45,442 bases of DNA, from positions 1-45,442 of the forward strand of contig JBMOKZ010000379.1 of NCBI GenBank assembly GCA_049324195.1, written 5' to 3'. The first letter of the stretch is position 1, and each line of letters opens with the position of its first letter. Shown here piece after piece: positions 1 to 29,610 of the stretch. The DNA is from Candidatus Zixiibacteriota bacterium (GTDB taxonomy: Bacteria > Zixibacteria > MSB-5A5 > GN15 > FEB-12). A program made the translations under genes and the position numbers. The notes under the pieces are model-generated. The model had not been told where the DNA came from. It saw nothing but the letters and a program-made list of their open reading frames with translations, and searched no databases.

Positions 1-165
1 AACTTTATATACTTTAGAGGTTTATACAAAAAGGAGGTAGTTTATAGCACTACGGTTAATGTTTTTTTGTTTTTAATTTAGTTACATAAAAGGTGTTGAT
101 TTAATCGGCCTTTATAACCGTTGCTTAAACTACTGGTTATGGGCCGGGTCAGAGGCCCGGTACAT

Positions 166-3100
166 ATGAAAGTCTTATTGTATAAATCTTTTTTTATTGC
201 CTTTTTCTTTATCGCCGGAACTCTTTCCTCAAGGGCGACCGACGATATAGAAGTTATCGCTTCCGGCGACGAGACTTTCCAATTCAAGTTTTTCTGTAAT
301 TCCGACTTATCGAATCTTGTCCCGGTTTTTCTGACCGATTCCAGCCGGGTTTTCCAAAAATATGTTAAAGTGGGTATTCCTTACGGTTCCACCGCTCGAC
401 TTCTGGCGGTTGAAAGCCGGTCACCTGAACCTTTCACCTTCGATGAAAATACACGTGTTACTCAGGCTCCGCTGGTAAGTCTGTCGAAACCTCTGACGGT
501 ACGTGACCGCCAGATGGTAACAGTCATTATTTCTCCGGTTCAGGGCAGTGTGACTTATCGAGAAATTGAAATAACGATTGGTTTTTCGAAAGGAGAAGAC
601 CGGACTGACAATCAAGTTCGAACTGATCCGCATTTCGACCGTATTTTCCAGACTATCCTTGCCAATTACGACCGTTTCCGCACCTGGCCTTCCCCGGCGC
701 GGTCCACGCAGGCTCTTGCGGTGGCGGCTGTTGACCATCCCCTTTATAAAGCCGACCAATGGTATAAAATTTATGTTAACGAGACCGGTCTTTATCGTAT
801 CACCGGCTCTCAGTTGAGTGCCGCGGGTGTTTCCCTGACCGGCCTTCAAGCCGACTCCATCAGGATATTCAACAGCGGCGGATTGAAACTGTCCCTGTTC
901 AATGAGGAGCCCCGTCCCGAGTTCGAGGAAATAGCGATCGTGGTCGAGGACGGTGGCGACGGCCTGTTCGGAAACAACGACTATATTCTTTTTTACGGGG
1001 AATCGCTTAACCGCTGGCTTTTCGAGGCGGGTTCGTCCATAAGTCATACCAATAACCAGGTGGCGTCGGAAAACGTTTACTGGCTGTGCACTTCCGGAAC
1101 TTTCGAAATGCCCCCGGTCAGAATGGCGGTCGAGAATGCCACCCCAAGCGGCACGGAGACCGATATTACCTCATCCTGGCGCTGGGTCCGGGTAGAACAG
1201 GATATTTTTCTGGCTCCCGACGACGACGGTCATCTTCGCGATTATTACCGCTGGTACTGGTCCAAGGATACGCTGGTGACGTTTTCGGTTTCTACTCCGG
1301 CGGCAATTCCCGGCGATTCCGCTTATGTCTATATTAAAGCCCGCACCAGCGGGTCTTTGTCGGTGATCGATTACGTGAACCTGAAAATTAACGGGGTTAC
1401 CGGTTTGGATAAAAATTGTACCCGTTTTGAATGTGTTTACAGCACCGAAGCGCTGGTTGACGGGTTGAACAGCGTCGAGCTGCAGTTGACGCCCATCCGT
1501 CCCGAACCGAGCCGGCTTTCGCCTTATTTAGATTATCTGGATATTTCCTATTCTGCCTATCTGGAACCTTCGAACGGTAAACTGGACATGATTTTCGGTG
1601 ACCTGAGCGGTCAGTATCGAATTATCATCAACGACAACTTTTCCTCGGCGCCCTTATTGATAGACCTGACCGACCCGCGTCAGCCGTTCCGCCTGACCGG
1701 TTACCAGCGCAGTGCAGGTATGCTTTATTTCAGCGCCGTGTTTGAAGCCGGGAGCCATAATCGTTTTTACTGCGCTGACCCGACTTTGGCGTTATCCCCC
1801 GAGGCTGTCACTGCGGAAACCGCCTTTGCCAATCTTAGGGAAACCGACCGCCAGGTTGATTTGTTCATCGTCACTCCCCGGGTGTTCGCCAACCGCCTTG
1901 ACGAGTATGTCCAGTACCGGGAGGACGATGGTTACGCGGTGGAAATAGTGACGGTCGAAGATATCATGGACAATTTCTCCTACGGAGTTTACGACCCGGT
2001 GGCGATTCGTGATTTTCTGAAATTCGCTTACGAGAATTCTCCCGACCCGAAACCCTCGTCGGTACTTTTCGTCGGCGACGCCAATTTCGATTTTCTGGAC
2101 AAGCTGGAAACCGGCGTGCCCAACTATGTACCGCTTATGCTGCACGAATACAGCCAGGTCGATTACACTTATAACGACGACAACTATGTTTATTTCGGCG
2201 AGTACGGCGTTCTCGACGAGGACACCAGCTTTATTTTCCATCCCGACCGGGGTTACGAGATGATGACCGCCCGCTGGCCGGTCAGTTCCGTGAGCCAGAT
2301 AAACGTCATTATCGATAAAATAATGAATTACGAATCTCCGGCCAATTTCGGTTTCTGGCGGAACAACGTCACGCTGGTAGCCGACGATGCTTACGAGGGT
2401 ACGACCAACACCTACCAGTATTTCCATGCCGGCGATACCGATACTCTGGCCCGGGAGCATATCCCGCGCCATTTCAATATCGAGAAAATTTATCTCTGGG
2501 ATTATCCGCTGGTCAACCGGGAAAAACCGGAGGTCAACGATAAAATCGTGGAAAGCATCAACGACGGGACGCTGATTGTCAATTATGTCGGTCATGGCAA
2601 CGCGAATGTCTGGGCGCACGAACACGTGTTCCAGCGGCAGTCGGATTTGCCCCGCCTGACCAATCTCGAGATGCTGCCGCTGGTGGTCGCCGCTTCCTGC
2701 GAAATTGGTTTTATCGACAATCCCAAGAGTGAGGGCATGGGTGAGGATTTCCTTACCTGGACCAACGGCGGCGCCATCGGTGTTCTGGCGGCCACCCGTC
2801 TGGTTTATGCCTCCGATAATAAGGATTTTAATCAGATGGTATACGATGTTCTGTTGTACAACGATTCGCTTTCGATTTGTCAATCGATATACACCGCCAA
2901 GCTTCTGCGCCAGTACAATATCGATTCCACCATCTCGAAGCTGGAAAACGACCGGGCTTTCATCTATCTGGGCGGTCCTTTCGTTCGGCTCGGCCGACCG
3001 TTACTGGATATCGAATTCAGCGAACGCCCCGACAGCCTGGCGGCGCTGGCGCGCGTCCGGGTGGCGGGACGGGTGGTCGATGAAAACCTCCAGACCTTGA

Positions 3101-4050
3101 ACCGTAACGGTGTCCTTGAAGTTAACGTCTATGATTCCGAACGGGAAGTGCTTTACCGTGATGAAGGTGCCGATATCATGACCTATCTGGTGCAGGGACC
3201 GCTGATTTATCGCGGCTCGGCCTCGATTACGGCCGGCGAGTTCAATTTTGAGTTCATCAACCCCCTCGATATAAATTACGGCGGACAGGGCGCGAAGATT
3301 GTCGCCTACGCCCTCCTCGACGGTATTGACGGTATTGGTCTGGTTGATTCCATCCCGATTTCCGATTCCATCGTCATCAGTTCCGATTCGGTCGGACCGG
3401 TCATTTCCTTCAATTTCACCGGTCGCGAGAATTTCCTCAGCGGCGACGTTATCACCCCCGGGGAAACGCTCGAAATCACTCTGGTCGATTCCTCCGGGAT
3501 AAACCTGGTTGGCGGTCTGGGACACGGGATAACTCTGGAAATTGACCATAAACCCGAAAATATAATAAACCTTTCCGGCAGTTTTGAATATGACCAGGAT
3601 GATTTTACCACTGGCTCGTTGACCTGCAAGCTGGATGATTTGGGTCTCGGTGAACATCACTTCAAGATAAAGGCCTGGGATAACGCCAATAATTCCTCCT
3701 CGGTGGAATTTTCCGCCCGGGTCGTAGCTCAGGGAGTTCTGGCGATAAACAACCTGTTGAATTATCCCAATCCTATGAGCGAAAATACTACCTTTTACTT
3801 TGAATTAACTCAGCAGGTGGAAAAATTTTCCCTGGAGATCTTTACTCTCTCGGGCAAGAAGATTAAGTATTTTAACCAATATGGCTTAGGTGCCGATAAT
3901 TATCCTAACGGTAATTGTGAAATAACCTGGGATGGAAAAGACGCCGAAGGCGACCGGGTCGCCACCGGGGTCTATATCTATAAAGCCAAGGCTGTTCCGC
4001 TGTCTGGCGAAGCGGTCGAATCATTTGGAAAAGTAGTTGTTATTAATTAA
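166..4050 (+). CDS. porU: PorU-like T9SS C-terminal signal peptidase/sortase (peptidase C25, gingipain family) with its own T9SS C-terminal domain
   Basis: The track ORF starts at TTG 121. I prefer ATG 166 because it gives a classic signal peptide, MKVLLYKSFFIAFFFIAGTLSSRA. C25-type catalytic contexts are visible: LIVNYVGHGNANVW (His) and LPLVVAASCEIGF (Cys). The C-terminal ~95 aa resemble a T9SS sorting domain. The gene lies directly upstream of a PorV-like gene (17-nt gap), which is the conserved porU-porV arrangement. Confidence 0.7.
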   Translation: MKVLLYKSFFIAFFFIAGTLSSRATDDIEVIASGDETFQFKFFCNSDLSNLVPVFLTDSSRVFQKYVKVGIPYGSTARLLAVESRSPEPFTFDENTRVTQAPLVSLSKPLTVRDRQMVTVIISPVQGSVTYREIEITIGFSKGEDRTDNQVRTDPHFDRIFQTILANYDRFRTWPSPARSTQALAVAAVDHPLYKADQWYKIYVNETGLYRITGSQLSAAGVSLTGLQADSIRIFNSGGLKLSLFNEEPRPEFEEIAIVVEDGGDGLFGNNDYILFYGESLNRWLFEAGSSISHTNNQVASENVYWLCTSGTFEMPPVRMAVENATPSGTETDITSSWRWVRVEQDIFLAPDDDGHLRDYYRWYWSKDTLVTFSVSTPAAIPGDSAYVYIKARTSGSLSVIDYVNLKINGVTGLDKNCTRFECVYSTEALVDGLNSVELQLTPIRPEPSRLSPYLDYLDISYSAYLEPSNGKLDMIFGDLSGQYRIIINDNFSSAPLLIDLTDPRQPFRLTGYQRSAGMLYFSAVFEAGSHNRFYCADPTLALSPEAVTAETAFANLRETDRQVDLFIVTPRVFANRLDEYVQYREDDGYAVEIVTVEDIMDNFSYGVYDPVAIRDFLKFAYENSPDPKPSSVLFVGDANFDFLDKLETGVPNYVPLMLHEYSQVDYTYNDDNYVYFGEYGVLDEDTSFIFHPDRGYEMMTARWPVSSVSQINVIIDKIMNYESPANFGFWRNNVTLVADDAYEGTTNTYQYFHAGDTDTLAREHIPRHFNIEKIYLWDYPLVNREKPEVNDKIVESINDGTLIVNYVGHGNANVWAHEHVFQRQSDLPRLTNLEMLPLVVAASCEIGFIDNPKSEGMGEDFLTWTNGGAIGVLAATRLVYASDNKDFNQMVYDVLLYNDSLSICQSIYTAKLLRQYNIDSTISKLENDRAFIYLGGPFVRLGRPLLDIEFSERPDSLAALARVRVAGRVVDENLQTLNRNGVLEVNVYDSEREVLYRDEGADIMTYLVQGPLIYRGSASITAGEFNFEFINPLDINYGGQGAKIVAYALLDGIDGIGLVDSIPISDSIVISSDSVGPVISFNFTGRENFLSGDVITPGETLEITLVDSSGINLVGGLGHGITLEIDHKPENIINLSGSFEYDQDDFTTGSLTCKLDDLGLGEHHFKIKAWDNANNSSSVEFSARVVAQGVLAINNLLNYPNPMSENTTFYFELTQQVEKFSLEIFTLSGKKIKYFNQYGLGADNYPNGNCEITWDGKDAEGDRVATGVYIYKAKAVPLSGEAVESFGKVVVIN
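3730..4047 (+). other. T9SS C-terminal sorting domain (CTD) of the PorU-like protein
   Basis: LLNYPNPMSENTTFYFELTQQVEKFSLEIFTLSGKKIKYF...ITWDGKDAEGDRVATGVYIYKAKAV...GKVVVIN shows the NYPNP start and the GVYIY-type penultimate strand typical of Por secretion tails. Domain boundaries are approximate. Confidence 0.6.
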
Positions 4051-4067: not shown

Positions 4068-6728
4068 ATGAAAATGAGAAAAGCAATCGTTTCCTCTCTC
4101 GCTCTGATTTTTGTCTTGATGGCGGCTGTGGATGGTTTTGCCGACGTATCAAGCGCCGCGGTGTTGTTTTTGAGAATCGCCGCCGGTTCCAGGGCTTCGG
4201 CAATGGGAGAGTCCTTTGTAGCGGTTGCCGATGATGGTACCACCACTCACTGGAATCCCGCCGGTCTGGGGTCATACCCGCTCGCGGATGACTGGATCGA
4301 AAACAGCCTGCCGGATGAATATCGACCGGTTACGGCTTTTGCCGCCATTCCGAAAAACCGCAGCGGTCTGTCTATAGATTATGATATCTGGGCGCTTACC
4401 AGTAAGGGTCTTGTCCGGTTCGATGGAAAAAACTGGGAATCGTCGGAAACCTTCGATACCAAAACCGACGATGAACTCCAGAAAGTCATTGCCTCTTACT
4501 TTAATACCAAGGATGACGCGAAGCTGGTCCGGATGGTAACGATAGTCGCCGAGGCCAACAGTAAGAGAACCCTTCAGGAAATGACCACCCTGAAAGAAAA
4601 TATTCTCGCGGCAATACCTGCGGATTACAAACACCGTGAAGGCCTGCTGGGGAACCTTGACAGCCTGATGGTCAAGTACAATGAATGCAAGCTGAAATGG
4701 GAAAAAGTCGAGGAAATCGAATCGCAGTACAAGGAAGCCATGAAGGACAGCCTGATGAACATCGACGAAGCGGAGAAAATATACTTCGCCGTGGAAAAGT
4801 CCTGGGCGCGCTGGATACCCGAAGAAATCAAGGTTCCTTATAACGTGTTTTTCGATTCGGATTTGAAAATGATCGCCTCGGCGGGCGATAAATTGCTGGT
4901 CGGAACCTCGGACGGTCTGGTAGCTTTTAACGGTAAAAGCTGGCAGTCCCTAACCGTGGAAAATGGTCTGCCCTCGAACAATATTTTGACGTTCTGTACC
5001 TCCGACCAGAAAATTCTGGTTGGAACCGATTCCGGGCTCGTGGTTTTCGACGGCTTTTCTATCGACACCACCTCGCTGGCCGGCTGCCCGGCCGGAACGG
5101 TGACCGCTATCGGCGCCGACGGTCTGTCCAGTGTTTATGCCGTCGTCGATAACGACCTGTATCATTTTGATGGCAGCGCCTGGTCCAACAGCTTTGTCTA
5201 TACTCTGGAGCTCGAGGATACGCCCGAGAAAATCGCCGAAAAGTTTTCCGTTTACGGAACCGAGACTGAAAAAGAGAAATACCTGGCCAAGCTCGAGACC
5301 TTGAAAACCCCCCCGGCGCCTGTTGAACCCGAAGTCGAAGCGGATACAACCGGTGAAGCCGCCGCTGAGGGAGAGGCGGCCGAGGTGCAGCCGGAAGTCG
5401 CTGAGGCGACCCCGGAAAAGCTGGATGTCGCGGAAATGAGAATCCCCTTTCTTGCGGAATTCAAAGGCCGGGTCACCAGTATTTATGTGGCGTTCGATGA
5501 AACCGTCTGGGTCGGTACTGACTATGGGATCCTGTCGTTCAACGGCGAAAGCTGGCAGATGCCCGGTTATAAGGATTACACTGTCAGGGAGGGTGAAACG
5601 TTCGAGAATTTGATCGCTTTCAAGGAAAACAACACACCCGATGACGCGGAGCTTTATGCCGCCCAGCTGATGGAAATCAACGACCTGCCGGAGAAAACGG
5701 TGAAAGCCGGCGACGTTATGAAAATCTATTCCAACCCGGCCGCTTTACCTGTGAACGGTATTTCCCGGCACGAGAAAAAAATCATGTTCGCCACTCCCGA
5801 AGGCATGATCGAATACGGCGACGGCGCCTGGAGCCGTTCCGGAGCCTTGAATCTCGGTAGCACCGAGATCGTCGGTATTTCCTCGATCGATAACGAAGTT
5901 ATGGTGATGACCGATGAGCGGATAGTTGTCCGGGCCAAGGGACGAACCGAACTCACTTTCATGCACGTCAAGTGGCTTAAAGAACTGGCTGACGACATGT
6001 ACTATGAGTTTCTCTCGTTCGTCACGAGCAAGGGTGACCTGGGGACGTTCGGCGGCAACATCACTTACATTACTTATGGAAGTTTTATTCAGACGACTAC
6101 TTCTCCGGATGAACAGGGTCAGTTTGACGCCTTTGATCTGGCCATCACCCTCGCTTACGGTAATTCGCTGACCCGGCGGCTCAAATACGGTTTGTCGGCC
6201 AAACTGATTCACTCCCATCTCAGTCCTATCGGCGCCGGAAAAGAACAGGGCGACGGTATCTCCTGGGGTTTTGCGGTTGATTTCGGACTGCTCTATCATA
6301 TGACGCCGCGGCTTAACTGGGGTCTGGCAATCACCAATATCGGTCCCAAGATGCAGTATATCGACGCCGGTCAGTCCGATGACTTGCCGCGTAACCTTTC
6401 ATTCGGTTTCGCTTACAAGCTGATTCAGACCGATTATTACAAAATGTTGGTTACGGGCGAATTGAATAAAATCCTGGTCAGCCTGGATGACGGACTGTCC
6501 GAGGAATTCCGCGAAATGGTGATATCCGGAGGTGGTGAATTCACCTACGCCGATTTGCTCGCCGCCCGGGCCGGTTATTATTACGATAAGGAAGGTCAAC
6601 TTAAATATTTGACGCTCGGGTTGGGCCTGACGTTAAAAATCTTTAAATTTGATTTTGCTTATATTCCGAATAATGACGATATTGCCCTGGCGAATACGTT
6701 GCGTATGTCCTTCTCGGTACTGTTGTAA
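4068..6728 (+). CDS. porV: PorV/PorQ-family outer-membrane barrel protein interrupted by a ~550-aa insertion (Reg_prop-like propeller repeats, acidic P/E/A linker, LysM-like stretches)
   Basis: ATG is preceded by GTGGAG, and there is a signal peptide (MKMRKAIVSSLALIFVLMAAVDGFA). It is followed by AAVLFLRIAAGSRASAMGESFVAVADDGTTTHWNPAGLG, the N-terminal signature I associate with PorV/PorQ. The last ~270 aa have alternating-hydrophobic strands (YGLSAKLIHSHL, WGFAVDFGLLYH, WGLAITNIGPKMQY, LSFGFAYKL, LRMSFSVLL). The middle carries six GLxxF(D/N)GxxW-type repeats. Confidence 0.6.
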   Translation: MKMRKAIVSSLALIFVLMAAVDGFADVSSAAVLFLRIAAGSRASAMGESFVAVADDGTTTHWNPAGLGSYPLADDWIENSLPDEYRPVTAFAAIPKNRSGLSIDYDIWALTSKGLVRFDGKNWESSETFDTKTDDELQKVIASYFNTKDDAKLVRMVTIVAEANSKRTLQEMTTLKENILAAIPADYKHREGLLGNLDSLMVKYNECKLKWEKVEEIESQYKEAMKDSLMNIDEAEKIYFAVEKSWARWIPEEIKVPYNVFFDSDLKMIASAGDKLLVGTSDGLVAFNGKSWQSLTVENGLPSNNILTFCTSDQKILVGTDSGLVVFDGFSIDTTSLAGCPAGTVTAIGADGLSSVYAVVDNDLYHFDGSAWSNSFVYTLELEDTPEKIAEKFSVYGTETEKEKYLAKLETLKTPPAPVEPEVEADTTGEAAAEGEAAEVQPEVAEATPEKLDVAEMRIPFLAEFKGRVTSIYVAFDETVWVGTDYGILSFNGESWQMPGYKDYTVREGETFENLIAFKENNTPDDAELYAAQLMEINDLPEKTVKAGDVMKIYSNPAALPVNGISRHEKKIMFATPEGMIEYGDGAWSRSGALNLGSTEIVGISSIDNEVMVMTDERIVVRAKGRTELTFMHVKWLKELADDMYYEFLSFVTSKGDLGTFGGNITYITYGSFIQTTTSPDEQGQFDAFDLAITLAYGNSLTRRLKYGLSAKLIHSHLSPIGAGKEQGDGISWGFAVDFGLLYHMTPRLNWGLAITNIGPKMQYIDAGQSDDLPRNLSFGFAYKLIQTDYYKMLVTGELNKILVSLDDGLSEEFREMVISGGGEFTYADLLAARAGYYYDKEGQLKYLTLGLGLTLKIFKFDFAYIPNNDDIALANTLRMSFSVLL

Positions 6729-6767: not shown

Positions 6768-9700
6768 TTGCATAGGATGCAGTTTCTGGAGAAGATACTA
6801 TTAGTTTTAATAATATTCACCGGGCTGTCGCTGACAGCCCGGGCTGCTGATGACATCATAATCGGTAAAAAAGTCCCGGCGGAAAAAACCGTTACGGCTA
6901 ATCCTGTCCGCGGATTCGACATTAGCCCCTATCCCAACGAACGTCTTAATATCTCGTCGATGAAAAAAGGTGACAAGGTCTGGGCTCTGCCGTCCCGCGC
7001 GCTGGCCGCCGATTTCGATTCCACTATCAACGTCCTGGTTCTGCGCGTTCAGTTTCAGGAAGAAGTCGAGGATGACCCCAACACCACCGGCAACGGCATT
7101 ATGAACGTCACCCACCCCAAGGAGAACGTGAACGATTCCCTTGCCTATTTCGATTCGGTCGGCCACTGGGTCGATCCCCCGCCGCACGATTCGCTATATT
7201 TCGACGCCCATATGCGGTCGCTCAACCGCTACTGGGAAACCGTCTCCGATTCCGGCCTTCAATTGACCTGGAACATTTTTCCTTCGGGGGCCAATTCCGT
7301 TTATCAACTGCCACATGAGATGAGCTATTACGGCAAGTGCAGCTACGATTCTGTGGTGCTGGGACTTCAGAATTTCTTTATTGACTGCATTGAACTGGCC
7401 GATGAAGATCCTGATATCGCTTTCGCGGATTATCAGGCTATTATCATTTTCCACGCCGGCGCCGACCGTCAGAACGATCTCGGTTATCCGCTCACCTGTT
7501 GTGACCTCTTTACCGGTTATATCCGCTTTATCGATACCGCGCTGGTGGTCGATGATGGCGCCGCTGAGGTCAACTCGGCGGTCATGATGCCCGAGTATTC
7601 CAGTCAGGACAACCGGGCGGTGGCTATCAACGCCGTGATGGCGCACGAGTTTGGTCATCAACTGGGTTTGATTGACCTGTACAACACCTACTCCGCGGCG
7701 CTGATGTCCTGTCTGGGTGATTTTGCTTTGATGGACAATAACGGTTTCAACACCGGTCTGGAGATGCCCGAATGGTTCTCCAAGCCCTGGATCGGGACCG
7801 TCTTTGGCGCCATGCCCATTTACCCCTGCGCCTGGTCGCGGGCTTATCTCGGCTTTGATGAGGTGGTTGATTACAGGCAGGGTTCGGATATTCGGCTGGT
7901 GGCCGCCGAGGCTGCCCGGGAAGGCGTTAAAATCGCCCGTATCCCCATCTCCGAGATGGAGTACTATCTTATCGAGGTCCGGACCGACGATATGGACGGT
8001 ATCGAGGAAGTCGGGGTCAAATGGGACGCCGACGGTACCGGTATTTTCCTCTGGCCCAAAAACGAATATGTCGATTTCAACCGGGAGTACGATGCTCTCA
8101 TCCCCGGTGCGGGGATGCTGATATATCATGTCGATGAATCCGTGGCCTGGATGAATTTCGACGCCTCCGAATACGATACGCTCAATAATTTCGATGACAA
8201 CGACCTGCAATGGGACCGCGAACGTCGGTTTGTCAAGCTGGTCGAGGCCGACGGTATCGAGAATTTCCACGGCTATTATTCGGGCGGCTACGGCGAGGAG
8301 GACGATATGTTCCGAGAGGACAACAACGGTTCGTTTACGCCCAATACCAACCCGCCCGCCATCGATAATTCCGGCAACAACACGCATATTTATATCGAAA
8401 ACATCTCCCGTCTGGATACGCTTTTTCCCGGAGAATCGGTAATTTCGACCCTCGACACCATCATGACTTTCGACCTCGAAACCAGGGGACTGGTGCAGAA
8501 TTTCCCGGTCCGGGTCGGTCCTTACGGTTACAGCGTGATCGCCGATGACCTGAACTATGACGGAAAAACCGAAATAATTACTGCCTGCGGCAACCTGCTG
8601 GCGGTATTCACCGCCGACGGTCATAATTTCCTGATGGAGCAACACGGGTTCGACAGCGGTCATGTCTATTATGACGACGCCGCGGCAATAATCAATCCGG
8701 GGGAATCGTTCGAACCGGACAGCACCGATATTGTCATCCATCTGAATCCCCAGCCCGTACCGCTTTACGTGCGCACCTCAGAAATCATGTCCTGCGCGCC
8801 CGTAACCGGGCAGTTCGATACGACGATGCTGCTCGATAAATACGTCGCGATCGGTTTTCCGACTTCTATCAGCATGGGCGTAGTTTTGTTTTATACGACC
8901 GATGACAACAATCTGGACGGCCGGTCAGACGCCGTCAACGCCATCGGGGCGCCGCTGCCGACCAGAGGATACCCGATTGCCCTTTCGTTCGGAAGTAAAC
9001 TATATGCCCTGACCGATTCCGGGTACGTCTATTTCAAGGAGGCTTTGACGGCTCCCGCGCTGGCATACCCATATTTTAAAAACGAGGAATACTTCGGCAT
9101 CTGCCGTATCAGCGAAAACCGTCTGCTGCTTATGGCGGGGGACACCCTGGGTGACGATAACGAACAAACCAGAATTTACTATATGGGGGGTACGGCCGAG
9201 ACCGTGGATTCGCTGGTGCTCGACGGTTATTACAAATACGGCCCGGTGCTGGTGGATGTCGATAAAGACTACCAGCCGGAAATCGTCGCTTGCACCCCCG
9301 ACGGCGATATCGTTTACGTGACGGTGGACACGACCAGCGTCATGCCCTCGTTCAGTATTCTCGCGCACCGCAAGACCGGTTATCGTTTGACGACCAACCC
9401 GGCAGTGGGCGATGTCGACCTCAACGGCTACCCGGATATAATTATCGGCGGGCAGAACGCCGTGTATGCTTTCAATCAGGACCTGACCCTCAAAACCGGC
9501 TTCCCGATCGAAGTCAATGACCGTTACCCCGACGATATCGTCGCCGCCGCGCCGATCACGACGGACCTTCGGTCCGGAGGCGTCCCGGAAATAATCTTCC
9601 CGACGGAAGTGGGTAATATCAACTCGTTCGGTCCTGACAAAACCTATGGTTTCCCGCTTTCAGCGGGGGAATACGGGCTGGGGTCGTGTGTTTATTTCGT

Positions 9701-10178
9701 CGATTCCTCCTCGGGCGATTCCATAGTCGGACGGCTCGGGTATATCGGCGCCGACGGCTGGTTCTATGCCTGGTCGGTGGACCCGGACACGGCGCATAAT
9801 TACTGGCCCATGATAGGTCGTGACCCCGAAGGCTCGTTCCGGTTTATCAACGACCAGCTCCAGCCGGCGACGCCTACAGCCGGTTTGCTTCCGGAGGAGC
9901 GGTTTTACAATTATCCCAACCCGGTACTGGACGGCGCTACCACCATCACCTACTGGCTTAATGATACTCCGGAGAATATTGCTCTGACGATTTATGATTT
10001 GTCCGGACGTGAGGTAAAAAGTTTCCGCATGGACGAACTCGGCCGGCGCGTTCAGGAAGAAAACGAAGTGGTCTGGAACTGCGGTAACGTCACTCCGGGG
10101 GTGTATCGGTGCCTGATAAAAGTCGATTTCTCCGGAAGCACCGAAACGTCCTTTACCGATATTGCCGTAATAAGATAA
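6768..10178 (+). CDS. Secreted M6-family (immune inhibitor A-like) zinc metalloprotease with FG-GAP/VCBS-like repeats and a T9SS CTD
   Basis: The HExxH site sits in AVMAHEFGHQLGLIDLY. M6-type blocks are present: MEYYLIEVR, GAGMLIYHVDES, VKLVEADG. FG-GAP-like repeats are DLNYDGKTEIITA, DVDKDYQPEIVA, GDVDLNGYPDIIIGG and DLRSGGVPEIIF. SD GGAGG (6756-6760) lies 7 nt before TTG 6768; ATG 6777 is an alternative start. A signal peptide ends in ...LTARAADD. Confidence 0.75.
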   Translation: MHRMQFLEKILLVLIIFTGLSLTARAADDIIIGKKVPAEKTVTANPVRGFDISPYPNERLNISSMKKGDKVWALPSRALAADFDSTINVLVLRVQFQEEVEDDPNTTGNGIMNVTHPKENVNDSLAYFDSVGHWVDPPPHDSLYFDAHMRSLNRYWETVSDSGLQLTWNIFPSGANSVYQLPHEMSYYGKCSYDSVVLGLQNFFIDCIELADEDPDIAFADYQAIIIFHAGADRQNDLGYPLTCCDLFTGYIRFIDTALVVDDGAAEVNSAVMMPEYSSQDNRAVAINAVMAHEFGHQLGLIDLYNTYSAALMSCLGDFALMDNNGFNTGLEMPEWFSKPWIGTVFGAMPIYPCAWSRAYLGFDEVVDYRQGSDIRLVAAEAAREGVKIARIPISEMEYYLIEVRTDDMDGIEEVGVKWDADGTGIFLWPKNEYVDFNREYDALIPGAGMLIYHVDESVAWMNFDASEYDTLNNFDDNDLQWDRERRFVKLVEADGIENFHGYYSGGYGEEDDMFREDNNGSFTPNTNPPAIDNSGNNTHIYIENISRLDTLFPGESVISTLDTIMTFDLETRGLVQNFPVRVGPYGYSVIADDLNYDGKTEIITACGNLLAVFTADGHNFLMEQHGFDSGHVYYDDAAAIINPGESFEPDSTDIVIHLNPQPVPLYVRTSEIMSCAPVTGQFDTTMLLDKYVAIGFPTSISMGVVLFYTTDDNNLDGRSDAVNAIGAPLPTRGYPIALSFGSKLYALTDSGYVYFKEALTAPALAYPYFKNEEYFGICRISENRLLLMAGDTLGDDNEQTRIYYMGGTAETVDSLVLDGYYKYGPVLVDVDKDYQPEIVACTPDGDIVYVTVDTTSVMPSFSILAHRKTGYRLTTNPAVGDVDLNGYPDIIIGGQNAVYAFNQDLTLKTGFPIEVNDRYPDDIVAAAPITTDLRSGGVPEIIFPTEVGNINSFGPDKTYGFPLSAGEYGLGSCVYFVDSSSGDSIVGRLGYIGADGWFYAWSVDPDTAHNYWPMIGRDPEGSFRFINDQLQPATPTAGLLPEERFYNYPNPVLDGATTITYWLNDTPENIALTIYDLSGREVKSFRMDELGRRVQEENEVVWNCGNVTPGVYRCLIKVDFSGSTETSFTDIAVIR
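9900..10175 (+). other. T9SS C-terminal sorting domain (CTD) of the M6 protease
   Basis: FYNYPNPVLDGATTITYWLNDTPENIALTIYDLSGREVKSF...VVWNCGNVTPGVYRCLIKVDF...TDIAVIR has the same NYPNP...GVY pattern as the CTD at 3730-4047. Boundaries are approximate. Confidence 0.6.
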
Positions 10179-10196: not shown

Positions 10197-11126
10197 ATGG
10201 CTTTTGGGAAAATTATTGTAACGACTGTTTTGTCGATATTGGCTATTGCCGTGGCGGTACCAGCCTTCGAACTGCCAACGTCAGTTTTCGACCGGGAAAA
10301 ACAGGCGCTTAAGTACAGCTACACCAATCTTGGTTTGAACGCCCCGTTCGCTGACGAGTTCGACGATACCGATAATCCCGAAGCTGTCAAACTCGAAGAG
10401 AAAACATCGAAACCGGGTCATAAATCACCCGGGCGAGCGTTTGTTTATTCTCTCGTTCTGCCGGGACTGGGTCAGTACTATTACGGCAGCAAGGTCAAGG
10501 CCGCCTTTTTTCTCGGGACGGAAATCACCGCCTGGACGCTGTGTCTTATATGGCATGCCGACGGTGTTGACCTGACCGACGATTTCGAGGCTTTCAACCG
10601 GGAACACTGGATTGAAGACAGGTACGTTGATTATCTCCAAATGGCATATGGAGAGGAATATACTGATGATGAGGATATCCCCGTCAGCGAGAATGAGGGG
10701 ATTATCCACAATTTGCCCGATACCCGCACCCAGCAATATTACGAGATGACCGGAAAGTACGACCAGTTCGCCTGGGGCTGGGAGGACGCTGTGCTCGATG
10801 GTGACTCTCTTTATGATTTTGATGCCGGGAATCCGCCGCCGAAAATTTATGAAGAAGGCACCACACCGTATTCGGCGCTGCGTTTTGTTTACGAGGATAT
10901 GCGCGAAGACGCCAATAATAAATTCGATAATTCCAAAAAGATGGTCATGGTCGCCATTTTAAACCGCCTGATAAGCGGCTTCGAGGCGTACTTCATGACC
11001 AAACACCGTAACAGTCAGGCGGGGAACGACAACTCGTTTTTTAGCCGGGTCGATTTCGACGCCCGCTTGAAATCGTGTTATGCCGTTAACGATACGCCGT
11101 TTCTTAAGATGACGGTTAAATTTTAA
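10197..11126 (+). CDS. Hypothetical envelope protein, paralogue A of a tandem pair
   Basis: ATG follows AGGAA. The N-terminus is hydrophobic (MAFGKIIVTTVLSILAIAVAVPA). The motif YSLVLPGLGQYYYGSKVKAAFFLGTEITAW is shared with the next ORF. The C-terminus FLKMTVKF ends in Phe, like an OMP beta-signal. I recognise no family with confidence (possibly DUF5683-like). Confidence 0.55.
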   Translation: MAFGKIIVTTVLSILAIAVAVPAFELPTSVFDREKQALKYSYTNLGLNAPFADEFDDTDNPEAVKLEEKTSKPGHKSPGRAFVYSLVLPGLGQYYYGSKVKAAFFLGTEITAWTLCLIWHADGVDLTDDFEAFNREHWIEDRYVDYLQMAYGEEYTDDEDIPVSENEGIIHNLPDTRTQQYYEMTGKYDQFAWGWEDAVLDGDSLYDFDAGNPPPKIYEEGTTPYSALRFVYEDMREDANNKFDNSKKMVMVAILNRLISGFEAYFMTKHRNSQAGNDNSFFSRVDFDARLKSCYAVNDTPFLKMTVKF

Positions 11127-11140
11127 ATCAGGTTGGACCA

Positions 11141-11947
11141 ATGAGGAAACTAATACCGAGTATTATTTTCGTTTTTATTCTCTGTGTCGGTACCGCCGCC
11201 ACGGCGGTGGAGCTTAAATCCACGCCCGTGCAAAACGCTATGGAAATCCAGCTGGCGCTGGCCAGCCGGGGCGATGAATTCGACCAGCTAAACCGGAAGA
11301 AAACCGATGATGTGACCGCCACCGAGAATAAAATCGAAACAGGGACCAACAGTCCCAAAGCGGTCTGGAAAGCCGGTTTGCTTTCCGCGCTGGTGCCCGG
11401 AGCTGGGGAGTTCTATCTCGGTAACAAGGCCAAAGCCCGGTATTTTTTCGCCGCCGAGGCTCTGACCTGGGTGGGTTTTATCGCTTTCCGGACATACGGC
11501 AGCTGGCGCAAAGATGACTATATCGAATACGCCGCCAAATACGCCGACGCCCATATCGGCGACAAAGACGATGAATTTCACGACCTGGTCGGGTTTTACT
11601 CCAGCATCTATGAATATAACACTCTCGGCCGGGTAGGTGACCCGGAACGGGCGTATCTCGAAGACACTCCGGAGAATCACTGGCTCTGGGACAGTCCCGA
11701 GGACCAGGCGACTTACCGGGCGCTCAAGACGAGCAGTAAGGATGCTTATAACCGGGCTAATTTCGCGCTCGGGGTGGCCGCCATCGCCAGAATTATTTCG
11801 GTAATTGACGCGGTGCGCGACGCCCGCAAACAAAACCAGCGCATCGATAAGGAATTTTCCCGGTCAGATAAGATTAATTATAAATTCAGCGTAAATCCGT
11901 TCAGCGAAACCGGACAGGTTAAATTTACCCTTTATGCTCCGTTTTAA
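11141..11947 (+). CDS. Hypothetical envelope protein, paralogue B of a tandem pair
   Basis: Signal peptide MRKLIPSIIFVFILCVGTAATA. The shared motif is LSALVPGAGEFYLGNKAKARYFFAAEALTW. A second shared block is ARIISVIDAV, versus NRLISGFEAY in paralogue A. The C-terminus QVKFTLYAPF ends in Phe. Confidence 0.55.
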   Translation: MRKLIPSIIFVFILCVGTAATAVELKSTPVQNAMEIQLALASRGDEFDQLNRKKTDDVTATENKIETGTNSPKAVWKAGLLSALVPGAGEFYLGNKAKARYFFAAEALTWVGFIAFRTYGSWRKDDYIEYAAKYADAHIGDKDDEFHDLVGFYSSIYEYNTLGRVGDPERAYLEDTPENHWLWDSPEDQATYRALKTSSKDAYNRANFALGVAAIARIISVIDAVRDARKQNQRIDKEFSRSDKINYKFSVNPFSETGQVKFTLYAPF

Positions 11948-11950
11948 AAT

Positions 11951-12913
11951 ATGGCTTTTAAAAAGCTTGTTCTGTTATTGACGGCCGGATGGCTATTAAT
12001 TACGGCCTGTTCCAAACCTCCATCGGATATCCAGGAAAACGCCCCTGTCGCCGTACCGCTTGCCATGCTCGTCGAGAGGGAAATATCCGGGACGGTTCTG
12101 GGTCAGTCCCTGAAAACGCCGATGGGAATAACGGTCGATTATCAGGGACAATTATATGTCTGCGACGCCGGTAATAACCGGCTGCTTCGCTTCGATGAAA
12201 AGTTTATGCCGCAAAGAGAGTACGGCGGTTACGGGAGCCTCGAGGGCCTGTTCAATCATCCCGGATATATTGTTATCGATAACGGGCTGAATCTCTGGGT
12301 CGCCGATGTCGGCAACCGGCGGTTGAGCCGTCACAACCGGGAATTGAATTTCGTCGACGAAATCAAGCTCGTCGATTATGACGAACCGCTCAAGTACGGC
12401 GAACCCTCGGGTATCGCTCTGACGCCCTACGGCGAAATCTGGATGTGTGACCGGGAAAAAGGCCGCCTCGCTATCTTCGATAATGTCGGCCAGTTCGACC
12501 GTTTTATCGGCGAATTCGGATATTCCGGCGGGCAGCTTCTGCAACCGGAAAAAATCATTTCCGATAGCCATGATAATTTCATCGTCTGTGACGCCGGTAA
12601 CCGCCGGATTGCGGTGTATGACCGCTATGGCAATTTTTCTTACGACCTCAGAAATAATGTTTTCGATTATCCGGTGGCGGCGGCGGCGGGGAACGATGGT
12701 AACCTGTGGGTGGTGGATAAAACCGCGGGGCGGGTGTATCTGGTCAGCCGACGCGGGGAAATCCTGTTCGAAACCGGTCCTTCGATTCCCGGGGTGAACA
12801 CCCCTCTCAAGAACCCGTCGGATATTATCGTCCTCAAAGACGGCCGGTTGATAATCTCCGACAGCGGTAATAACCGTCTGCTGGTATGTCAGGTCATGTT
12901 AGATAAACAGTAG
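11951..12913 (+). CDS. NHL-repeat beta-propeller lipoprotein
   Basis: Lipobox LLITAC follows the signal peptide. NHL-type blades repeat: CDAGNNRLLRFD, VADVGNRRLSRHN, MCDREKGRLAIFD, VCDAGNRRIAVYD, VVDKTAGRVYLVS, ISDSGNNRLLVC. The gap to the preceding gene is 3 nt. Confidence 0.75.
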   Translation: MAFKKLVLLLTAGWLLITACSKPPSDIQENAPVAVPLAMLVEREISGTVLGQSLKTPMGITVDYQGQLYVCDAGNNRLLRFDEKFMPQREYGGYGSLEGLFNHPGYIVIDNGLNLWVADVGNRRLSRHNRELNFVDEIKLVDYDEPLKYGEPSGIALTPYGEIWMCDREKGRLAIFDNVGQFDRFIGEFGYSGGQLLQPEKIISDSHDNFIVCDAGNRRIAVYDRYGNFSYDLRNNVFDYPVAAAAGNDGNLWVVDKTAGRVYLVSRRGEILFETGPSIPGVNTPLKNPSDIIVLKDGRLIISDSGNNRLLVCQVMLDKQ

Positions 12914-12923
12914 CCGTGCGGTT

Positions 12924-15900
12924 ATGCCGGGGTATTTCAGGAAAATATCATCCTACATCTTAATCGCTTCCGTAATGTGCGTGTCCGTTGCGGTGGCTGG
13001 AGCCAGAATCCAGCTGGTCGGAAACAATATTCCCAAAAACCTGACTGTGGGCAGCCGTTATATTTTCGCTGGTTCCGACACGCTTTATTTGAACGACCGG
13101 CTGCTGACGTGCGAAGTCGATTACCGTTTCCTGTCCGGGTACGGGTATTTCGATCTGTCGGCGCTGAATTTTTCAGCGAATGATACTCTGACCGTCGTTT
13201 ACACCCCTTTGCCGATCTGGCTTCAGAAGACTTACGGTCGGGCGCTGGAGCCGCTCGCCGCGTCGGCGAGCCGGGCAGTCAAACTTCCTGAGACAATCGA
13301 GGCGGTCGAGCGGATGCAACGTTCTCAAATCGATATTTCCGGAGCCAAATCATTTCGTTTTTCCGCCCGTTCAGCGGGCGCTTCGGAGTTCAGCCAGTCG
13401 CTTGATTTGAATATCGCCGGAGAACTGTCCCCGGGATTGGAAATATCCGGTTCCATTTCAGACCGGGGTTATGACCCCGCCTATGGTACGGCTAACAGCC
13501 GTCTCAATGAAATCGAGAAGATAAATATCCGTTTGAATTCCCGGAGGCTGACCGCCCAGGTAGGGGATATCCGGGTCAAAGCCGTGTCGTCCGATATTGT
13601 CGAAAAAAACGTGTCCGGAGCTTCATTCACACTATCATATCCCGCCTGGGGCGTGCGGGGAATGGTTGCCAGGCCGAAAGGGCTTTTCAGAACTTACAAA
13701 TTTTACGGTCAGGACGGTTTCCAGGGACCTTACCAGATCGGGGAGGGAAGTTCCATTTCACCGGTTGTGCCCGGCTCGGAAACTGTCTGGCTGGACGGCT
13801 CGCAACTGGAACGGGGAGCCAACAAGGATTACACCGTCGATTACGTGACCGGCCGAATTACGTTCAACGTCACCCGGCTTATTGATAGTCGCAGCCGGCT
13901 CGAAGTCGATTACGAGCCGCAGGCGACCGACTACAAGGGCGAGCTGTACGCCGCCAGCGCCGGGACAAAGATGAAGGATTCGCTCTTTTTCCTGACGGTC
14001 GATATCCTGCGCGAAGGGGACGATAAAAACCAGCCGCTTACCGGCGCGCTCTCGGAAAGCGATAAAAATTTGTTAAATGCGGGCGGCGACAGTTCCGTCT
14101 ACCGCTCGGGCGTAACGGCCGATACCTCGGGCAGTTTTATTCTGGTCGCCGACAGCCTGCCCGATTCTATATATCGTTTTGTCGGGGAAGGCAACGGGGA
14201 GTACGACGCGACCTTCAGCTATGTCGGCGACAATGCCGGTGGCTACCGTTTTCTCGGGAACGGTAATTACGAATATGTCGGCGACGGCGCCGGCGATTAC
14301 CGGCCGGTGGTGCTCGTACCCGCCCCGGTGCGAACGGATTATTTTCAGCTGACCACCGGCAGCCGCAGCGCTTTGCTCGGAACGCTTTCCGCCGATATCC
14401 GCACGACCAGCCATGATAAAAATCTTTTTTCGTCCCGTGATGACGGCGATAATACCGCCTGGTATTACGCACTCGGTGCGGCGCGGGACTGGTTCTGGCG
14501 CGACCGCATCAATCGCGTTGAGCTCAACCGGCGTGTGGTCGAAGCTGACTATAAGGTTCGGCAGCGGTTGAACCGGGCGGATTTCAGCCGGGATTTTCTG
14601 TTGCCGGTGAATTATGTCGTGCACGACGACGAAACATTGAACGAAATCAATGGTACGGTCAGCCCTTTACGGCAGTTCACTCTGACATCCTTTTATTCGA
14701 ATCTTGAATATGGAAGCAGTTTTTCAGCCCGCACTGGCGGCGTCAGCGCTGAACTTTATCCGTTGGAAAAACTGACCCTGTCCGGCGGCTGGCGGGGAAT
14801 TGCCTCCGACTATGAGGAGTCTCCGGGCAGCGGTCAGGGTTCGGCGGATAACGTCCAAACCACTCTCGACTACCTTTTCGACGAGCGGTTGCGACTTAAG
14901 ACCGGATTCGAATACGACGACCGCGTCAATGTCTATACGGCTCAAAAGCGGGGTACGCGCTATAACCGGGCCTGGCTCGAACTGGCCGGGAACGGGGTAA
15001 ATGTCCGCTATGAATATTACAACGAGGATACCCTGATGCAGGCGTGGACGGAAACGCTCGAACGCAACCGGGTGACCTCGGCTTTTAACCATCAGCTCGG
15101 CGACCTGGACTACGACCTGACGCTGTCGTATCAATGGCTCAACCAGCCACAGGTCGAAGAGACAAATTTCCTCGGGAGAATGAACCTGCGTTATTACCGT
15201 CCGCAGAACAAACTGCGTCTGGCGAGTTCGTACACCATCTCCGAAGAACTTCGCAACGAGCGGGGGCTGACTTATCTCGAAGTCGGGGAGGGTCTGGGGA
15301 ACTATATCCTCGAAGACGGCGAATATATCAGCGATCCCGACGGGAACTATATCCAGGTTGAGGAAATCCTGTCGGACAACGCCCGGGTGCGGCGGGGACA
15401 GAAAACTTTCGATGTCAGCAAGGATTGGCGGGTGGTGATGGTACGGTTCAATTCCGAGATTGAGGAGGAATTGCTTGACAGCGGCCGGCGTGCGGTATGG
15501 TGGGCGCTTCCGTTTTACAGCGACGAAAACGAACCGTATCTCTATTTTGACCGGCGATACGATGTTGATTTAAGAGCTGTTCCTCTGGGCGGTTTTCACG
15601 CCATCAACATCCATCTCTACGAAAAAACCGAAATAAGGTTCATCAGCGGCGCCTCAAGGAAACTTCGGGACACCCAAATCGAACTTGCGTTCAAACAGAA
15701 GTTACATGAAAGTTATTTCGTGGAAGCCCTGGAGCTGTTCAAGACCGCCCGCGACAGTTATTACAGCGGCGCGGGGAATATCAAGGGTTATAAAATAAAT
15801 CTGACATACCGGCTGCAGACCGCTTTCGGGGAACTAAGCGCGGGCGGCTCGTATCGCCGGGCAGACTCTGACGAGGATGAACGTTCGCGGATAATTTCGC

Positions 15901-16169
15901 TTTTAACCGGCAGCCGCCTTAAAATCGCGACTCGGGGAGAGATCCGAACGGAGCACGAACTTTACCGGCAGGAATTCGATAACCTCACCGGTTCCCCGTC
16001 CTACAAGCTAACCGGCAATAAACCCGGCGAGAAGGGCGCAGAATGGAAGCTCAGTTTTAACTATGGGGTCAGTGGCGGCCTGAGAATAAATCTGTCGGTG
16101 TCGGGTCGTCACGCCGACAACCGCACCGCTCGTATTACCGGTCGAGGGGAGGTGGTCGCCGGGTTTTAG
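12924..16169 (+). CDS. Large (1081 aa) uncharacterised secreted protein, probable outer-membrane beta-barrel
   Basis: Signal-like N-terminus MPGYFRKISSYILIASVMCVSVAVAGA. The sequence is rich in Y/R/G/D/N with many short alternating strands (LDYDLTLSYQWL, LRLASSYTISE, YKINLTYRLQ, WKLSFNYGVSGGLRINLSVSG). It ends in GEVVAGF, an aromatic terminal residue typical of OMPs. I recognise no family with confidence. Confidence 0.55.
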   Translation: MPGYFRKISSYILIASVMCVSVAVAGARIQLVGNNIPKNLTVGSRYIFAGSDTLYLNDRLLTCEVDYRFLSGYGYFDLSALNFSANDTLTVVYTPLPIWLQKTYGRALEPLAASASRAVKLPETIEAVERMQRSQIDISGAKSFRFSARSAGASEFSQSLDLNIAGELSPGLEISGSISDRGYDPAYGTANSRLNEIEKINIRLNSRRLTAQVGDIRVKAVSSDIVEKNVSGASFTLSYPAWGVRGMVARPKGLFRTYKFYGQDGFQGPYQIGEGSSISPVVPGSETVWLDGSQLERGANKDYTVDYVTGRITFNVTRLIDSRSRLEVDYEPQATDYKGELYAASAGTKMKDSLFFLTVDILREGDDKNQPLTGALSESDKNLLNAGGDSSVYRSGVTADTSGSFILVADSLPDSIYRFVGEGNGEYDATFSYVGDNAGGYRFLGNGNYEYVGDGAGDYRPVVLVPAPVRTDYFQLTTGSRSALLGTLSADIRTTSHDKNLFSSRDDGDNTAWYYALGAARDWFWRDRINRVELNRRVVEADYKVRQRLNRADFSRDFLLPVNYVVHDDETLNEINGTVSPLRQFTLTSFYSNLEYGSSFSARTGGVSAELYPLEKLTLSGGWRGIASDYEESPGSGQGSADNVQTTLDYLFDERLRLKTGFEYDDRVNVYTAQKRGTRYNRAWLELAGNGVNVRYEYYNEDTLMQAWTETLERNRVTSAFNHQLGDLDYDLTLSYQWLNQPQVEETNFLGRMNLRYYRPQNKLRLASSYTISEELRNERGLTYLEVGEGLGNYILEDGEYISDPDGNYIQVEEILSDNARVRRGQKTFDVSKDWRVVMVRFNSEIEEELLDSGRRAVWWALPFYSDENEPYLYFDRRYDVDLRAVPLGGFHAINIHLYEKTEIRFISGASRKLRDTQIELAFKQKLHESYFVEALELFKTARDSYYSGAGNIKGYKINLTYRLQTAFGELSAGGSYRRADSDEDERSRIISLLTGSRLKIATRGEIRTEHELYRQEFDNLTGSPSYKLTGNKPGEKGAEWKLSFNYGVSGGLRINLSVSGRHADNRTARITGRGEVVAGF

Positions 16170-16174
16170 GCGTT

Positions 16175-17815: not shown

Positions 17816-17852
17816 TTGTTGACTCCGACGGTCCGGACTTCTATTGTCCGGT

Positions 17853-19695: not shown

Positions 19696-20060
19696 CCGTT
19701 GAGGTCAAGCCGGTTCGGGCGGGTCTTTATAAATCACCTTCGTTTTGATATCATAAGTGTCGGGTTATCCACAACGAAAAATGAAAAAATCGTTATAAGC
19801 CGAATCGATATTACGGGTTGCGGCAAAATGGGTTTGTTTTGTTATTTTCGGGGTCTCTTTATTTTTTTGGTCGTTTCACTCGCAAAATCCCTACGTTGTC
19901 GGTAGCGCTGTTTTGTATATGATCCTGCATATTCTTAGCCTTTTTAAATGAGGGGGAGGAGATAGTATTTTGATGTGGATTGGTGGGGGAAGTGGGGGGG
20001 CTTGATATTATGCATTAATAGTATTGCTAAGCCTATATACCTCAAAAATAAGAAAAGAGA

Positions 20061-20089
20061 TTGCACTTGGGCCAGAAAGTCGATATATT
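20061..20089 (+). promoter_or_regulatory. Sigma70-like promoter of the AT-rich cassette
   Basis: TTGCAC (20061-20066), a 17-nt spacer, then TATATT (20084-20089), 36 nt upstream of ATG 20125. Confidence 0.4.
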
Positions 20090-20124
20090 ATCCATAACAA
20101 TCACTTGGGGAGTTATGTTTTAAT

Positions 20125-20949: not shown

Positions 20950-21019
20950 ATAAAAGGTGGCAAAAGAATACAGGTAATATTTAGATGAATCGGGCGACCA
21001 TACTTATAAAAATCTGGAT

Positions 21020-22932: not shown

Positions 22933-22956
22933 AATGTAAAAATATACGGAGGTTTA

Positions 22957-23946: not shown

Positions 23947-23958
23947 TAGAGAGCGTTT

Positions 23959-29607: not shown

Positions 29608-29610
29608 ACG

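Follow-up and report, generated by a model that had tools for sequence, protein, structure and literature searches.

A long PorV-family protein of Zixibacteria with a predicted periplasmic propeller and LysM-type modules between plug and barrel

PorV is central to models of type IX secretion systems (T9SS), in which it receives cargo from the translocon and offers it to the PorU sortase. In Flavobacterium johnsoniae and Porphyromonas gingivalis (6H3I and 8GL6, chain F) it has a conserved N-terminal signature and a 14-stranded FadL-type barrel, and its partner is porU. PorV proper also recognises the C-terminal domains of its cargo and attaches to the SprA/Sov translocon. Only a few linker residues separate signature and barrel in such canonical PorV proteins, whose length of about 330–400 amino acids (aa) agrees with the figure given in a preliminary description of the DNA studied here. 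PorV belongs to the FadL family (PMC9143113; bioRxiv 10.1101/2020.05.13.094771), and whether it shuttles freely or holds a fixed position is debated (PMC12365241). Here we describe a long PorV encoded on a contig of 45,442 bp from a metagenome-assembled genome of Zixibacteria (the whole contig is referred to as the window). Its gene, open reading frame (ORF) 4068..6728 (+), encodes a product of 886 aa that is a PorV-family protein by every sequence- and fold-based family test applied, with the same N-terminal signature and type of barrel and with a 555-aa module in place of the few linker residues. Domain architecture, insertion point, conservation and operon context are well supported. To specialists in the T9SS such a build, solid as it is, would come as a surprise; what the module does is something we infer.

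A related arrangement is found at another T9SS barrel. PorE of P. gingivalis (PG1058), a lipoprotein located in the periplasm, has TPR, propeller and OmpA_C domains, binds a peptidoglycan fragment and associates with PorP (PMC7192894, PMC9143113). PorP is a 14-stranded FadL-family paralogue of PorV, and PorE has been proposed to anchor the T9SS to the cell wall (PMC9143113, PMC7192894). Long PorV would resemble the PorE–PorP pair in placing a periplasmic assembly of helical, beta-propeller and peptidoglycan-binding (or peptidoglycan-binding-type) parts at a T9SS barrel. Whereas PorE is a lipoprotein in its own right, whose propeller is five-bladed and of the WD40 type and which has a CRD and binds the peptide stem through OmpA_C, the parts of long PorV are fused in cis, its propeller is seven-bladed and of the Reg_prop type, and its predicted LysM domain would bind the glycan strand. 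No homology of the insert to PorE could be demonstrated, and domain scans of the 886-aa protein found no OmpA_C, TPR, CRD or lipobox. We therefore rejected membership of the PorE family, none of the PorE domains being present, and regard long PorV as a possible functional analogue of PorE only.

Outer-membrane barrels with periplasmic wall-binding domains are familiar from the C-terminal domain of OmpA/OprF and the N-terminal LysM of intimin/invasin, and intimin shows that an outer-membrane protein can carry a LysM in the periplasm. In those proteins the wall-binding domain is terminal, whereas the module of long PorV is internal, lying between a predicted lumenal plug and strand 1; unlike theirs, its LysM modules are nested inside a propeller. 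The FadL, TodX and TbuX channels share the 14-stranded barrel fold with long PorV, and we know of no member of that group with a domain between hatch and strand 1.

The 886-aa protein clearly exceeded both curated thresholds for PorV/PorQ. NCBIfam NF033709 (PorV/PorQ family) scored 235.9 bits against a cutoff of 90 and Pfam PF19572 scored 68.7 bits against a cutoff of 27. Both matches fall into two pieces, one at the N terminus and one at about aa 624–886 (aa 624–884 for the barrel part of NF033709). The PorV equivalog NF033710 gave 174.9 bits in three stretches, below its cutoff of 250 and above the PorQ (87.9) and PorV2 (45.1) scores for the same protein; long homologues scored 121–195 bits with NF033710. 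At 886 aa the protein lacks the compact build of PorV (330–400 aa, plug running straight into strand 1). It does have porU next to it, the stop codon of PorU lying 18 nt before the PorV start. The identical protein is named 'PorV/PorQ family protein' at NCBI, an annotation that hides two thirds of it. A Sec signal peptide is predicted at aa 1–25 (4068..4142, +) from the sequence, which has a basic n-region, a hydrophobic core and an A-x-A-like site, and from a model helix at aa 2–21; cleavage would fall between ...AAVDGFA and DVSS.

The preliminary description had seen here a PorV-type protein split by an insert of about 555 aa at 4275–5940, which corresponds to aa 70–624. Family scores, BLASTP and an insert-deleted profile all bear this out. 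The N-terminal signature spans aa 31–68 and the barrel segment that opens with RTELTFMHVKW begins at aa 626. BLASTP against a 350-aa PorV of the KSB1 lineage aligned aa 3–67 with its residues 1–64 (55% identity) and aa 626–883 with its residues 69–347 (39% identity). From these two blocks it follows that the insert, aa 68–625, replaces 4 residues: where the short KSB1 protein has a 4-residue linker, long PorV has 558 residues, and the architecture is as unusual as had been supposed. F. johnsoniae PorV (FjPorV; 6h3i_F, 402 aa) gave a similar picture, with its residues 9–66 aligned to aa 11–71 and its residues 74–391 to aa 629–882. When the insert was deleted in silico, a profile of such sequences aligned to 6h3i_F in a single stretch (residues 28–394, E = 1.3e-55). 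The N-terminal motif belongs to the PorV family, as it aligns to both FjPorV (residues 28–66) and the short KSB1 protein; it contains the conserved segment ...G-x-R-A-x-x-M-G-x-x-x-V-A-x-x-D-D...N-P-A-G, and aa 31–68 pair with FjPorV 29–66. The length of the hatch segment is constant, at 42 aa, in 91/91 aligned homologues, and in HMMER searches with the insert the match begins at about residue 68–73 of the full-length top homologues.

We then turned to an AlphaFold2 model of the 886-aa protein built on the 91 homologues (mean predicted local distance difference test score (pLDDT) 85.6, predicted template modelling score 0.79), with strands and helices assigned by DSSP. All 14 barrel strands, from E628–635 to E877–885, come after the insert and adopt the barrel fold (aa 626–886 with the stop codon, 5943..6728, +). 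The idea that the N-terminal motif is a first strand completing the barrel is contradicted by this count, and aa 29–70 form only four short helices (pLDDT 77–92) with no barrel strand. As had been proposed, the C-terminal region scores as a PorV/PorQ-type barrel, both with NF033709 and in Foldseek, where its best match was PorV 8gl6_F (E = 4.6e-18, TM-score on target 0.61), along with 6h3i_F (E = 8.8e-16, TM-score on target 0.62). Lower-ranked matches were FadL (2r89_A, E = 3.4e-6) and TodX/CymD. The barrel is 261 aa long compared with about 320 in FjPorV, and its loops are shorter.

FadL-family barrels have an N-terminal plug, or 'hatch'. Given the secondary structure of the model, the FadL matches in Foldseek and the literature on PorV as a FadL-family member, the N-terminal signature (aa 26–70, 4143..4277, +; delimited by alignments and model) is most likely a FadL-type hatch rather than a barrel strand, its NPA-containing segment being likened to the FadL hatch. 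A phmmer search of the PDB with the 51-aa N-terminal segment returned PorV and spurious, summed matches to designed WD40 repeats, and did not reach FadL. Around the barrel, long loops follow strands 1, 5, 7, 9 and 13, strands 3 and 4 make a long hairpin, and turns of 2–5 residues follow the even strands; long loops after odd strands and short turns after even ones are what outer-membrane barrels usually show on their extracellular and periplasmic sides, respectively. In the translocon structure, N87 and F115 of FjPorV touch cargo from extracellular loops (PMC10994853). Through the alignment to 6h3i_F, N87 falls in the loop that follows strand 1 and F115 at the top of strand 3. By this topology, strand 1 of the 14-stranded barrel begins on the periplasmic side, 4 residues after the end of the insert, so the insert would be periplasmic, hanging under the barrel. 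Because the N terminus must stay a plug and the C terminus must stay the last barrel strand, the plug/strand-1 junction would be the only junction that keeps both plug and barrel intact, and hence a natural site for a periplasmic domain.

The core of the insert is, in the model, a seven-bladed Reg_prop-type beta-propeller with a closed propeller fold. Its first segment (4278..4442, +; strands E75–80, E88–95, E105–111 and E114–118) holds the closing, or 'velcro', strand of blade 7 at aa 75–80, which comes directly from the hatch to complete that blade, followed by blade 1 at aa 88–124 (GLVRFDGKNW). Blades 2–4 follow at aa 263–373 (4854..5186, +; GLVAFNGKSW, GLVVFDGFSI and DLYHFDGSAW), as delimited by DSSP, a PDB match and Foldseek. 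Blade 5 lies at aa 463–498 (5454..5561, +; WVGTDYGILSFNGESW), and includes the best Pfam Reg_prop stretch, aa 467–485. Blades 6 and 7 occupy aa 557–625 (5736..5942, +; strands E564–590 and E601–623; GMIEYGDGAW), and the last blade strand ends 4 residues before barrel strand 1. The motif had previously been counted six times. All six copies are real (6 observed with a relaxed motif versus 0.01 expected, 5000 shuffles), although the strict pattern fits only three of the six, and DSSP counts seven blades, not six: the copies, at aa 114, 283, 323, 363, 487 and 579, mark the third and fourth strands of blades 1–6, and blade 7 has no motif.

Matches in sequence and fold to the BT4673 sensor agree with the early description of the blades as Reg_prop-type. 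The blades at aa 261–325 match the Bacteroides thetaiotaomicron BT4673 sensor propeller (3ott/3va6) by sequence (E = 5e-5), Foldseek aligns the propeller with 3va6_A (E = 4.3e-10), and sensor proteins with several Reg_prop repeats match blades 2–4 in their hundreds. For many homologues, PF07494 (Reg_prop) matches are on record as precomputed annotation. The insert shares blade motif and fold with Bacteroides hybrid two-component sensors (BT4673, 3OTT/3VA6) and with PorZ, and differs from them in having one propeller rather than a tandem pair, in lacking a Y_Y_Y domain and a kinase, and in carrying LysM and helical insertions between blades. The PorZ family NF052228 (cutoff 260), characterised by two propellers and a C-terminal sorting domain, did not match the 886-aa protein and gave only blade-level matches of 22–43 bits in distant homologues. 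A PorZ-like fusion was rejected, the matches being at the generic level of blades and the insert lying, by topology, on the wrong side of the membrane.

Three strand–helix–helix–strand modules leave the propeller, after blades 1, 4 and 5. Module 1 (aa 126–168 and 246–262, 4443..4853, +; delimited by model and hhalign) is split by a four-helix bundle at aa 169–245 (4572–4802, +), which is the charged helical segment pointed out earlier; in the model the two together read E126–130, H137–163, H169–243 and E253–257. The first half of module 1 (aa 124–168) is present in 91/91 homologues at 44–48 aa, and the bundle ranges from 7 to 91 aa. Module 2 (aa 374–462, 5187..5453, +; model and hhalign; E375–379, H386–392, H399–413 and E456–460) is split by a linker rich in proline, glutamate and alanine at aa 414–451 (5307–5420, +). 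This is the acidic linker of the preliminary description, here predicted to be disordered (nt 5307–5420; pLDDT below 50 at aa 415–448), and it varies from 0 to 104 aa among homologues. Module 3 (aa 499–556, 5562..5735, +) has the canonical form, and was delimited by Pfam, profile, model and Foldseek. Pairwise hhalign probabilities of 96.9% (modules 1 and 2), 88.6% (1 and 3) and 96.9% (2 and 3) establish that the three LysM-type modules are mutually homologous. Two LysM-like stretches had been noticed before; LysM-type sequence is indeed present, but those stretches are halves of a single domain, module 3, and the modules number three in all.

Both model and sequence identify module 3 as a predicted LysM domain. 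It carries the hallmark motifs G-[DE]-T and N-D-L, and its family profile matches the LysM domains of a Thermus thermophilus NlpC/P60 endopeptidase (4uz2) at E = 2.2e-8. Modelled separately with AlphaFold (pLDDT 85.9), it adopts the LysM fold (E5–9, H16–23, H28–41 and E54–58), with about 8 residues more between the helices than in LysM. The top Foldseek matches to the module were almost all LysM (4uz2, 4xcm, MltD, YkuD and Ecp6), the best six having probabilities of 0.99–1.0. Across homologues, Pfam LysM matches were found in 19/62 module segments (best E = 1.4e-6).

Conservation of the long form was assessed in the alignment of 91 homologues and in a scan of one genome per species, with 80 loci among the matches listed. 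A search with the insert alone found more than 90 protein clusters of 850–960 aa from independent assemblies, down to about 23% identity. Among the matches listed, nearly all clusters have the PorV Pfam domain and span the insert completely (100%), and HMMER with the insert returned 63 representative clusters (50% identity) at E <= 1e-30. The long form is present in 76/80 of the loci listed and in at least 75 species-representative genomes, almost all of them Zixibacteria (Zixibacteria/GN15, with many bins labelled 'Ignavibacteria' by their submitters). These loci include contigs of 0.5–2.6 Mb and one complete chromosome. On the complete Zixibacteria chromosome L044 (CP070796.1, 5974..8331) the long-PorV gene meets a masked stretch, a run of X, inside the barrel. 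The match there covers only query residues 3–724 because of the masking, and is not a real truncation.

The gene order around long PorV is equally constant. Upstream lies PorU, the T9SS sortase (121..4050, +), with a C25 peptidase and a C-terminal sorting domain (NF033707 668.5 bits, cutoff 420; Peptidase_C25 267.8 bits). Downstream is a gene for an M6-like metalloprotease (6768..10178, +), which has an HEFGH motif and FG-GAP repeats and bears a C-terminal sorting domain of the T9SS. Among NCBIfam models it best fits NF052323, a family of 'inactivated' M6-like proteins (258 bits, cutoff 600), and it gives weak matches to Por_Secre_tail, Peptidase_M6 and FG-GAP. Despite the name of that family the HEFGH zinc motif is intact, and the sequence suggests that the product is probably an active T9SS cargo protease. 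The order PorU–PorV–M6-like is found in essentially every related locus with enough flank (about 76 genomes). The M6-like gene lies downstream in all five short-PorV loci (KSB1, Handelsmanbacteria and others), and PorU is upstream in two of the five. From these shared operon neighbours it follows that the long protein is the orthologue of the short PorV of KSB1, Handelsmanbacteria and similar lineages, and the insert was gained on the way to Zixibacteria.

Length variants of PorV homologues, for which a search of public genomes had been suggested, do occur, both as short forms and as long forms of 720–1050 aa. Distant PorV-family proteins in that size range have the same order of hatch, propeller-containing insert and barrel. 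In two of them (P0095, L084 946..3288, 780 aa; P0105, L085 1775..4153, 792 aa) an insert with a propeller occupies this junction as well; neither has a link to PorU, and their neighbours are unknown genes of about 200 aa and about 1230–1280 aa. Three others (P0160, P0164 and P0171, about 1050 aa) have the hatch at aa 33–68 and the barrel from about aa 789. The inserts of P0095 and P0105 lie apart from PorU, so insertion at the hatch/strand-1 junction is used beyond the PorU-linked protein of Zixibacteria.

On balance we lean towards the view that the insert serves as a scaffold built into PorV on the periplasmic side, by which the PorU–PorV attachment complex is tethered or docked to peptidoglycan. 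LysM domains bind glycans that contain N-acetylglucosamine. Since the module would be periplasmic, peptidoglycan would be the ligand, and the LysM modules would bind its glycan strands. Propeller and helical bundle would act as a scaffold, possibly offering a docking surface, and the PorU–PorV attachment complex would be tethered, or positioned, with respect to the cell wall and to the other parts of the secretion apparatus. By analogy, the insert may do the job proposed for the separate PorE lipoprotein at the PorP barrel in Porphyromonas. Attachment complexes positioned over the periplasmic PorKN ring (PMC12365241) show in addition that the periplasmic face of such barrels matters. Peptidoglycan binding and a tethering role of the predicted LysM modules are thus suggested by likeness to known systems.

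Several observations weigh against this proposal or against the structural assignments on which it draws. The placement of the hatch inside the barrel follows the FadL-family analogy, and the sequence likeness to FadL-family channels is marginal, the insert-deleted profile reaching TbuX at only E = 0.28. The membrane side is predicted from the strand count, the loop lengths and the assignment of the FjPorV loops. In the 886-aa protein itself both domain families stay below their Pfam gathering thresholds: Reg_prop PF07494 gave 18.3 bits (E = 0.0025, aa 467–485) against 20.4, and LysM PF01476 gave 15.4 bits (E = 0.018, aa 504–553) against 20.9. In canonical LysM, part of the sugar groove is formed by the loop that joins helix 2 to the last strand. 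The interruptions of modules 1 and 2 fall between these same two elements, close to the sugar-binding site, so these modules may have a purely structural role. Modules 2 and 3 and the bundle are absent from the most distant long forms, and the constant core of the long forms is the propeller with the module-1 half; a role in protein docking alone therefore stands as the main rival. Finally, tethering of PorV to the wall is at odds with the original 'mobile shuttle' model and fits better with the newer one of attachment complexes held over the PorKN ring (PMC12365241).

That rival holds that the insert is a periplasmic platform for proteins, on which propeller and bundle bind further parts of the apparatus, for instance a ring, a translocon, or cargo that is still unfolded or its C-terminal signal ahead of export, the LysM modules being degenerate decoration that does not bind the cell wall. 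We consider it possible but less probable. The invariance of the propeller, set against the intermittent presence of the bundle and of LysM modules 2 and 3, speaks for it, as do the large insertions that break modules 1 and 2 and the below-threshold LysM scores in the 886-aa protein. There are parallels in Porphyromonas, where attachment complexes sit on the periplasmic PorKN ring (PMC12365241) and where the TPR and propeller domains of PorE have been proposed as protein-interaction scaffolds (PMC7192894). Mere decoration fits less well with the retention of three LysM-type modules across the phylum, with the G-[DE]-T and N-D-L motifs of module 3 and its matches to solved LysM domains, or with the universal module-1 half (91/91 homologues), and no partner was identified. 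Protein docking is, moreover, compatible with peptidoglycan tethering rather than exclusive of it. A further and improbable reading, drawn from analogy with Reg_prop sensors and PorZ, is that the insert senses or handles periplasmic glycans, binding oligosaccharides or a lipopolysaccharide-type anchor precursor in a manner coupled to sorting. The nearest solved propeller relatives are indeed the BT4673 sensor domains, and two distant inserts match PorZ weakly (E = 4e-10 and 2.5e-11; 38.7 and 42.8 bits, cutoff 260). The likeness is, however, at the level of generic blades, the 886-aa protein has no PorZ match and no signalling output domain, and PorZ is on the cell surface whereas the insert is periplasmic by topology.

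Topology bears in the same way on the early suggestion that the insert adds a recognition or anchoring function to a cargo-shuttle barrel, if that function is placed on the cell surface. PorV works with surface proteins, and propellers and LysM are common in extracellular proteins, general considerations with no tool result behind them. All 14 strands come after the insert, which joins strand 1 opposite to the loops that are extracellular in solved PorV, and a surface location would need export of a folded 555-aa domain through or around the barrel; we regard such a location as very improbable. The concern that an assembly chimera or a frameshift had joined two genes is refuted by conservation, and its probability is negligible. 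The same continuous hatch–insert–barrel ORF recurs in over 90 protein clusters and in 75 or more species-representative genomes (76/80 of the loci listed), including contigs of 0.5–2.6 Mb and a complete chromosome, and nothing was found in favour of an artefact.

If peptidoglycan tethering by the insert is correct, PorV can work while immobilised, and the tethering that PorE provides in trans in Porphyromonas would be solved in cis elsewhere. A natural PorV variant found phylum-wide is thus a test case for PorV mobility. A further, tentative and on the whole doubtful, extension is that PorV of Zixibacteria is a wall-anchored station, with PorU fixed to peptidoglycan and no shuttling, that the insert may replace PorE or the PorKN ring, and that the hatch/strand-1 junction is a general permissive site for periplasmic domains in FadL-type barrels. 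The protein is a rare case of a domain nested between plug and barrel of a FadL-family protein, and the locus presents T9SS sorting genes as a conserved operon outside the Bacteroidota. Full-text literature searches returned no paper linking the T9SS or PorV to Zixibacteria and none on a PorV with a propeller or LysM insert.

The cluster continues after the M6-like gene (10197..17815, +) with two DUF5683-like genes (10197..11126 and 11141..11947), an NHL-repeat propeller (11951..12913), a 1081-aa protein (12924..16169, +) and an Omp85/POTRA protein (16175..17815, +), and the same order is found in two distant Zixibacteria (L001 and L002). The 1081-aa protein has no Pfam domain and no PDB sequence match; its relatives in Zixibacteria, at 40–76% identity, are all named 'hypothetical'. 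A short region matches TIGR04189 (SprA/Sov) weakly in 34/40 members of its family (best E = 2.1e-8), and in the 1081-aa protein itself this match gives 25.9 bits at aa 280–334. It may be distantly related to the T9SS translocon, at half the size.

Further along the window, 17844..18698 (+) encodes a UbiA-family prenyltransferase, for which the best NCBIfam scores are 176.5 bits (prenyltransferase) and 164.4 bits (geranylgeranylglycerol-phosphate geranylgeranyltransferase, an archaeal-type ether-lipid enzyme), both below cutoff. A stretch at about 20000..22000 has a GC content of 0.29–0.30, against about 0.52 elsewhere in the window, and contains an ORF of 274 aa without a family (20125..20949) and a DUF3800 ORF of 242 aa (21020..21748). 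The stretch is probably an island of foreign DNA. The remaining context (22072..32188, 34448..40679 and 40528..44155) is of a housekeeping kind, with a Bat/MoxR–DUF58–vWA–TPR–BatD operon, a TetR regulator with an OEP/HlyD/AcrB efflux pump, and bacillithiol-type genes (BshC, a GT4 glycosyltransferase and a PIG-L deacetylase).

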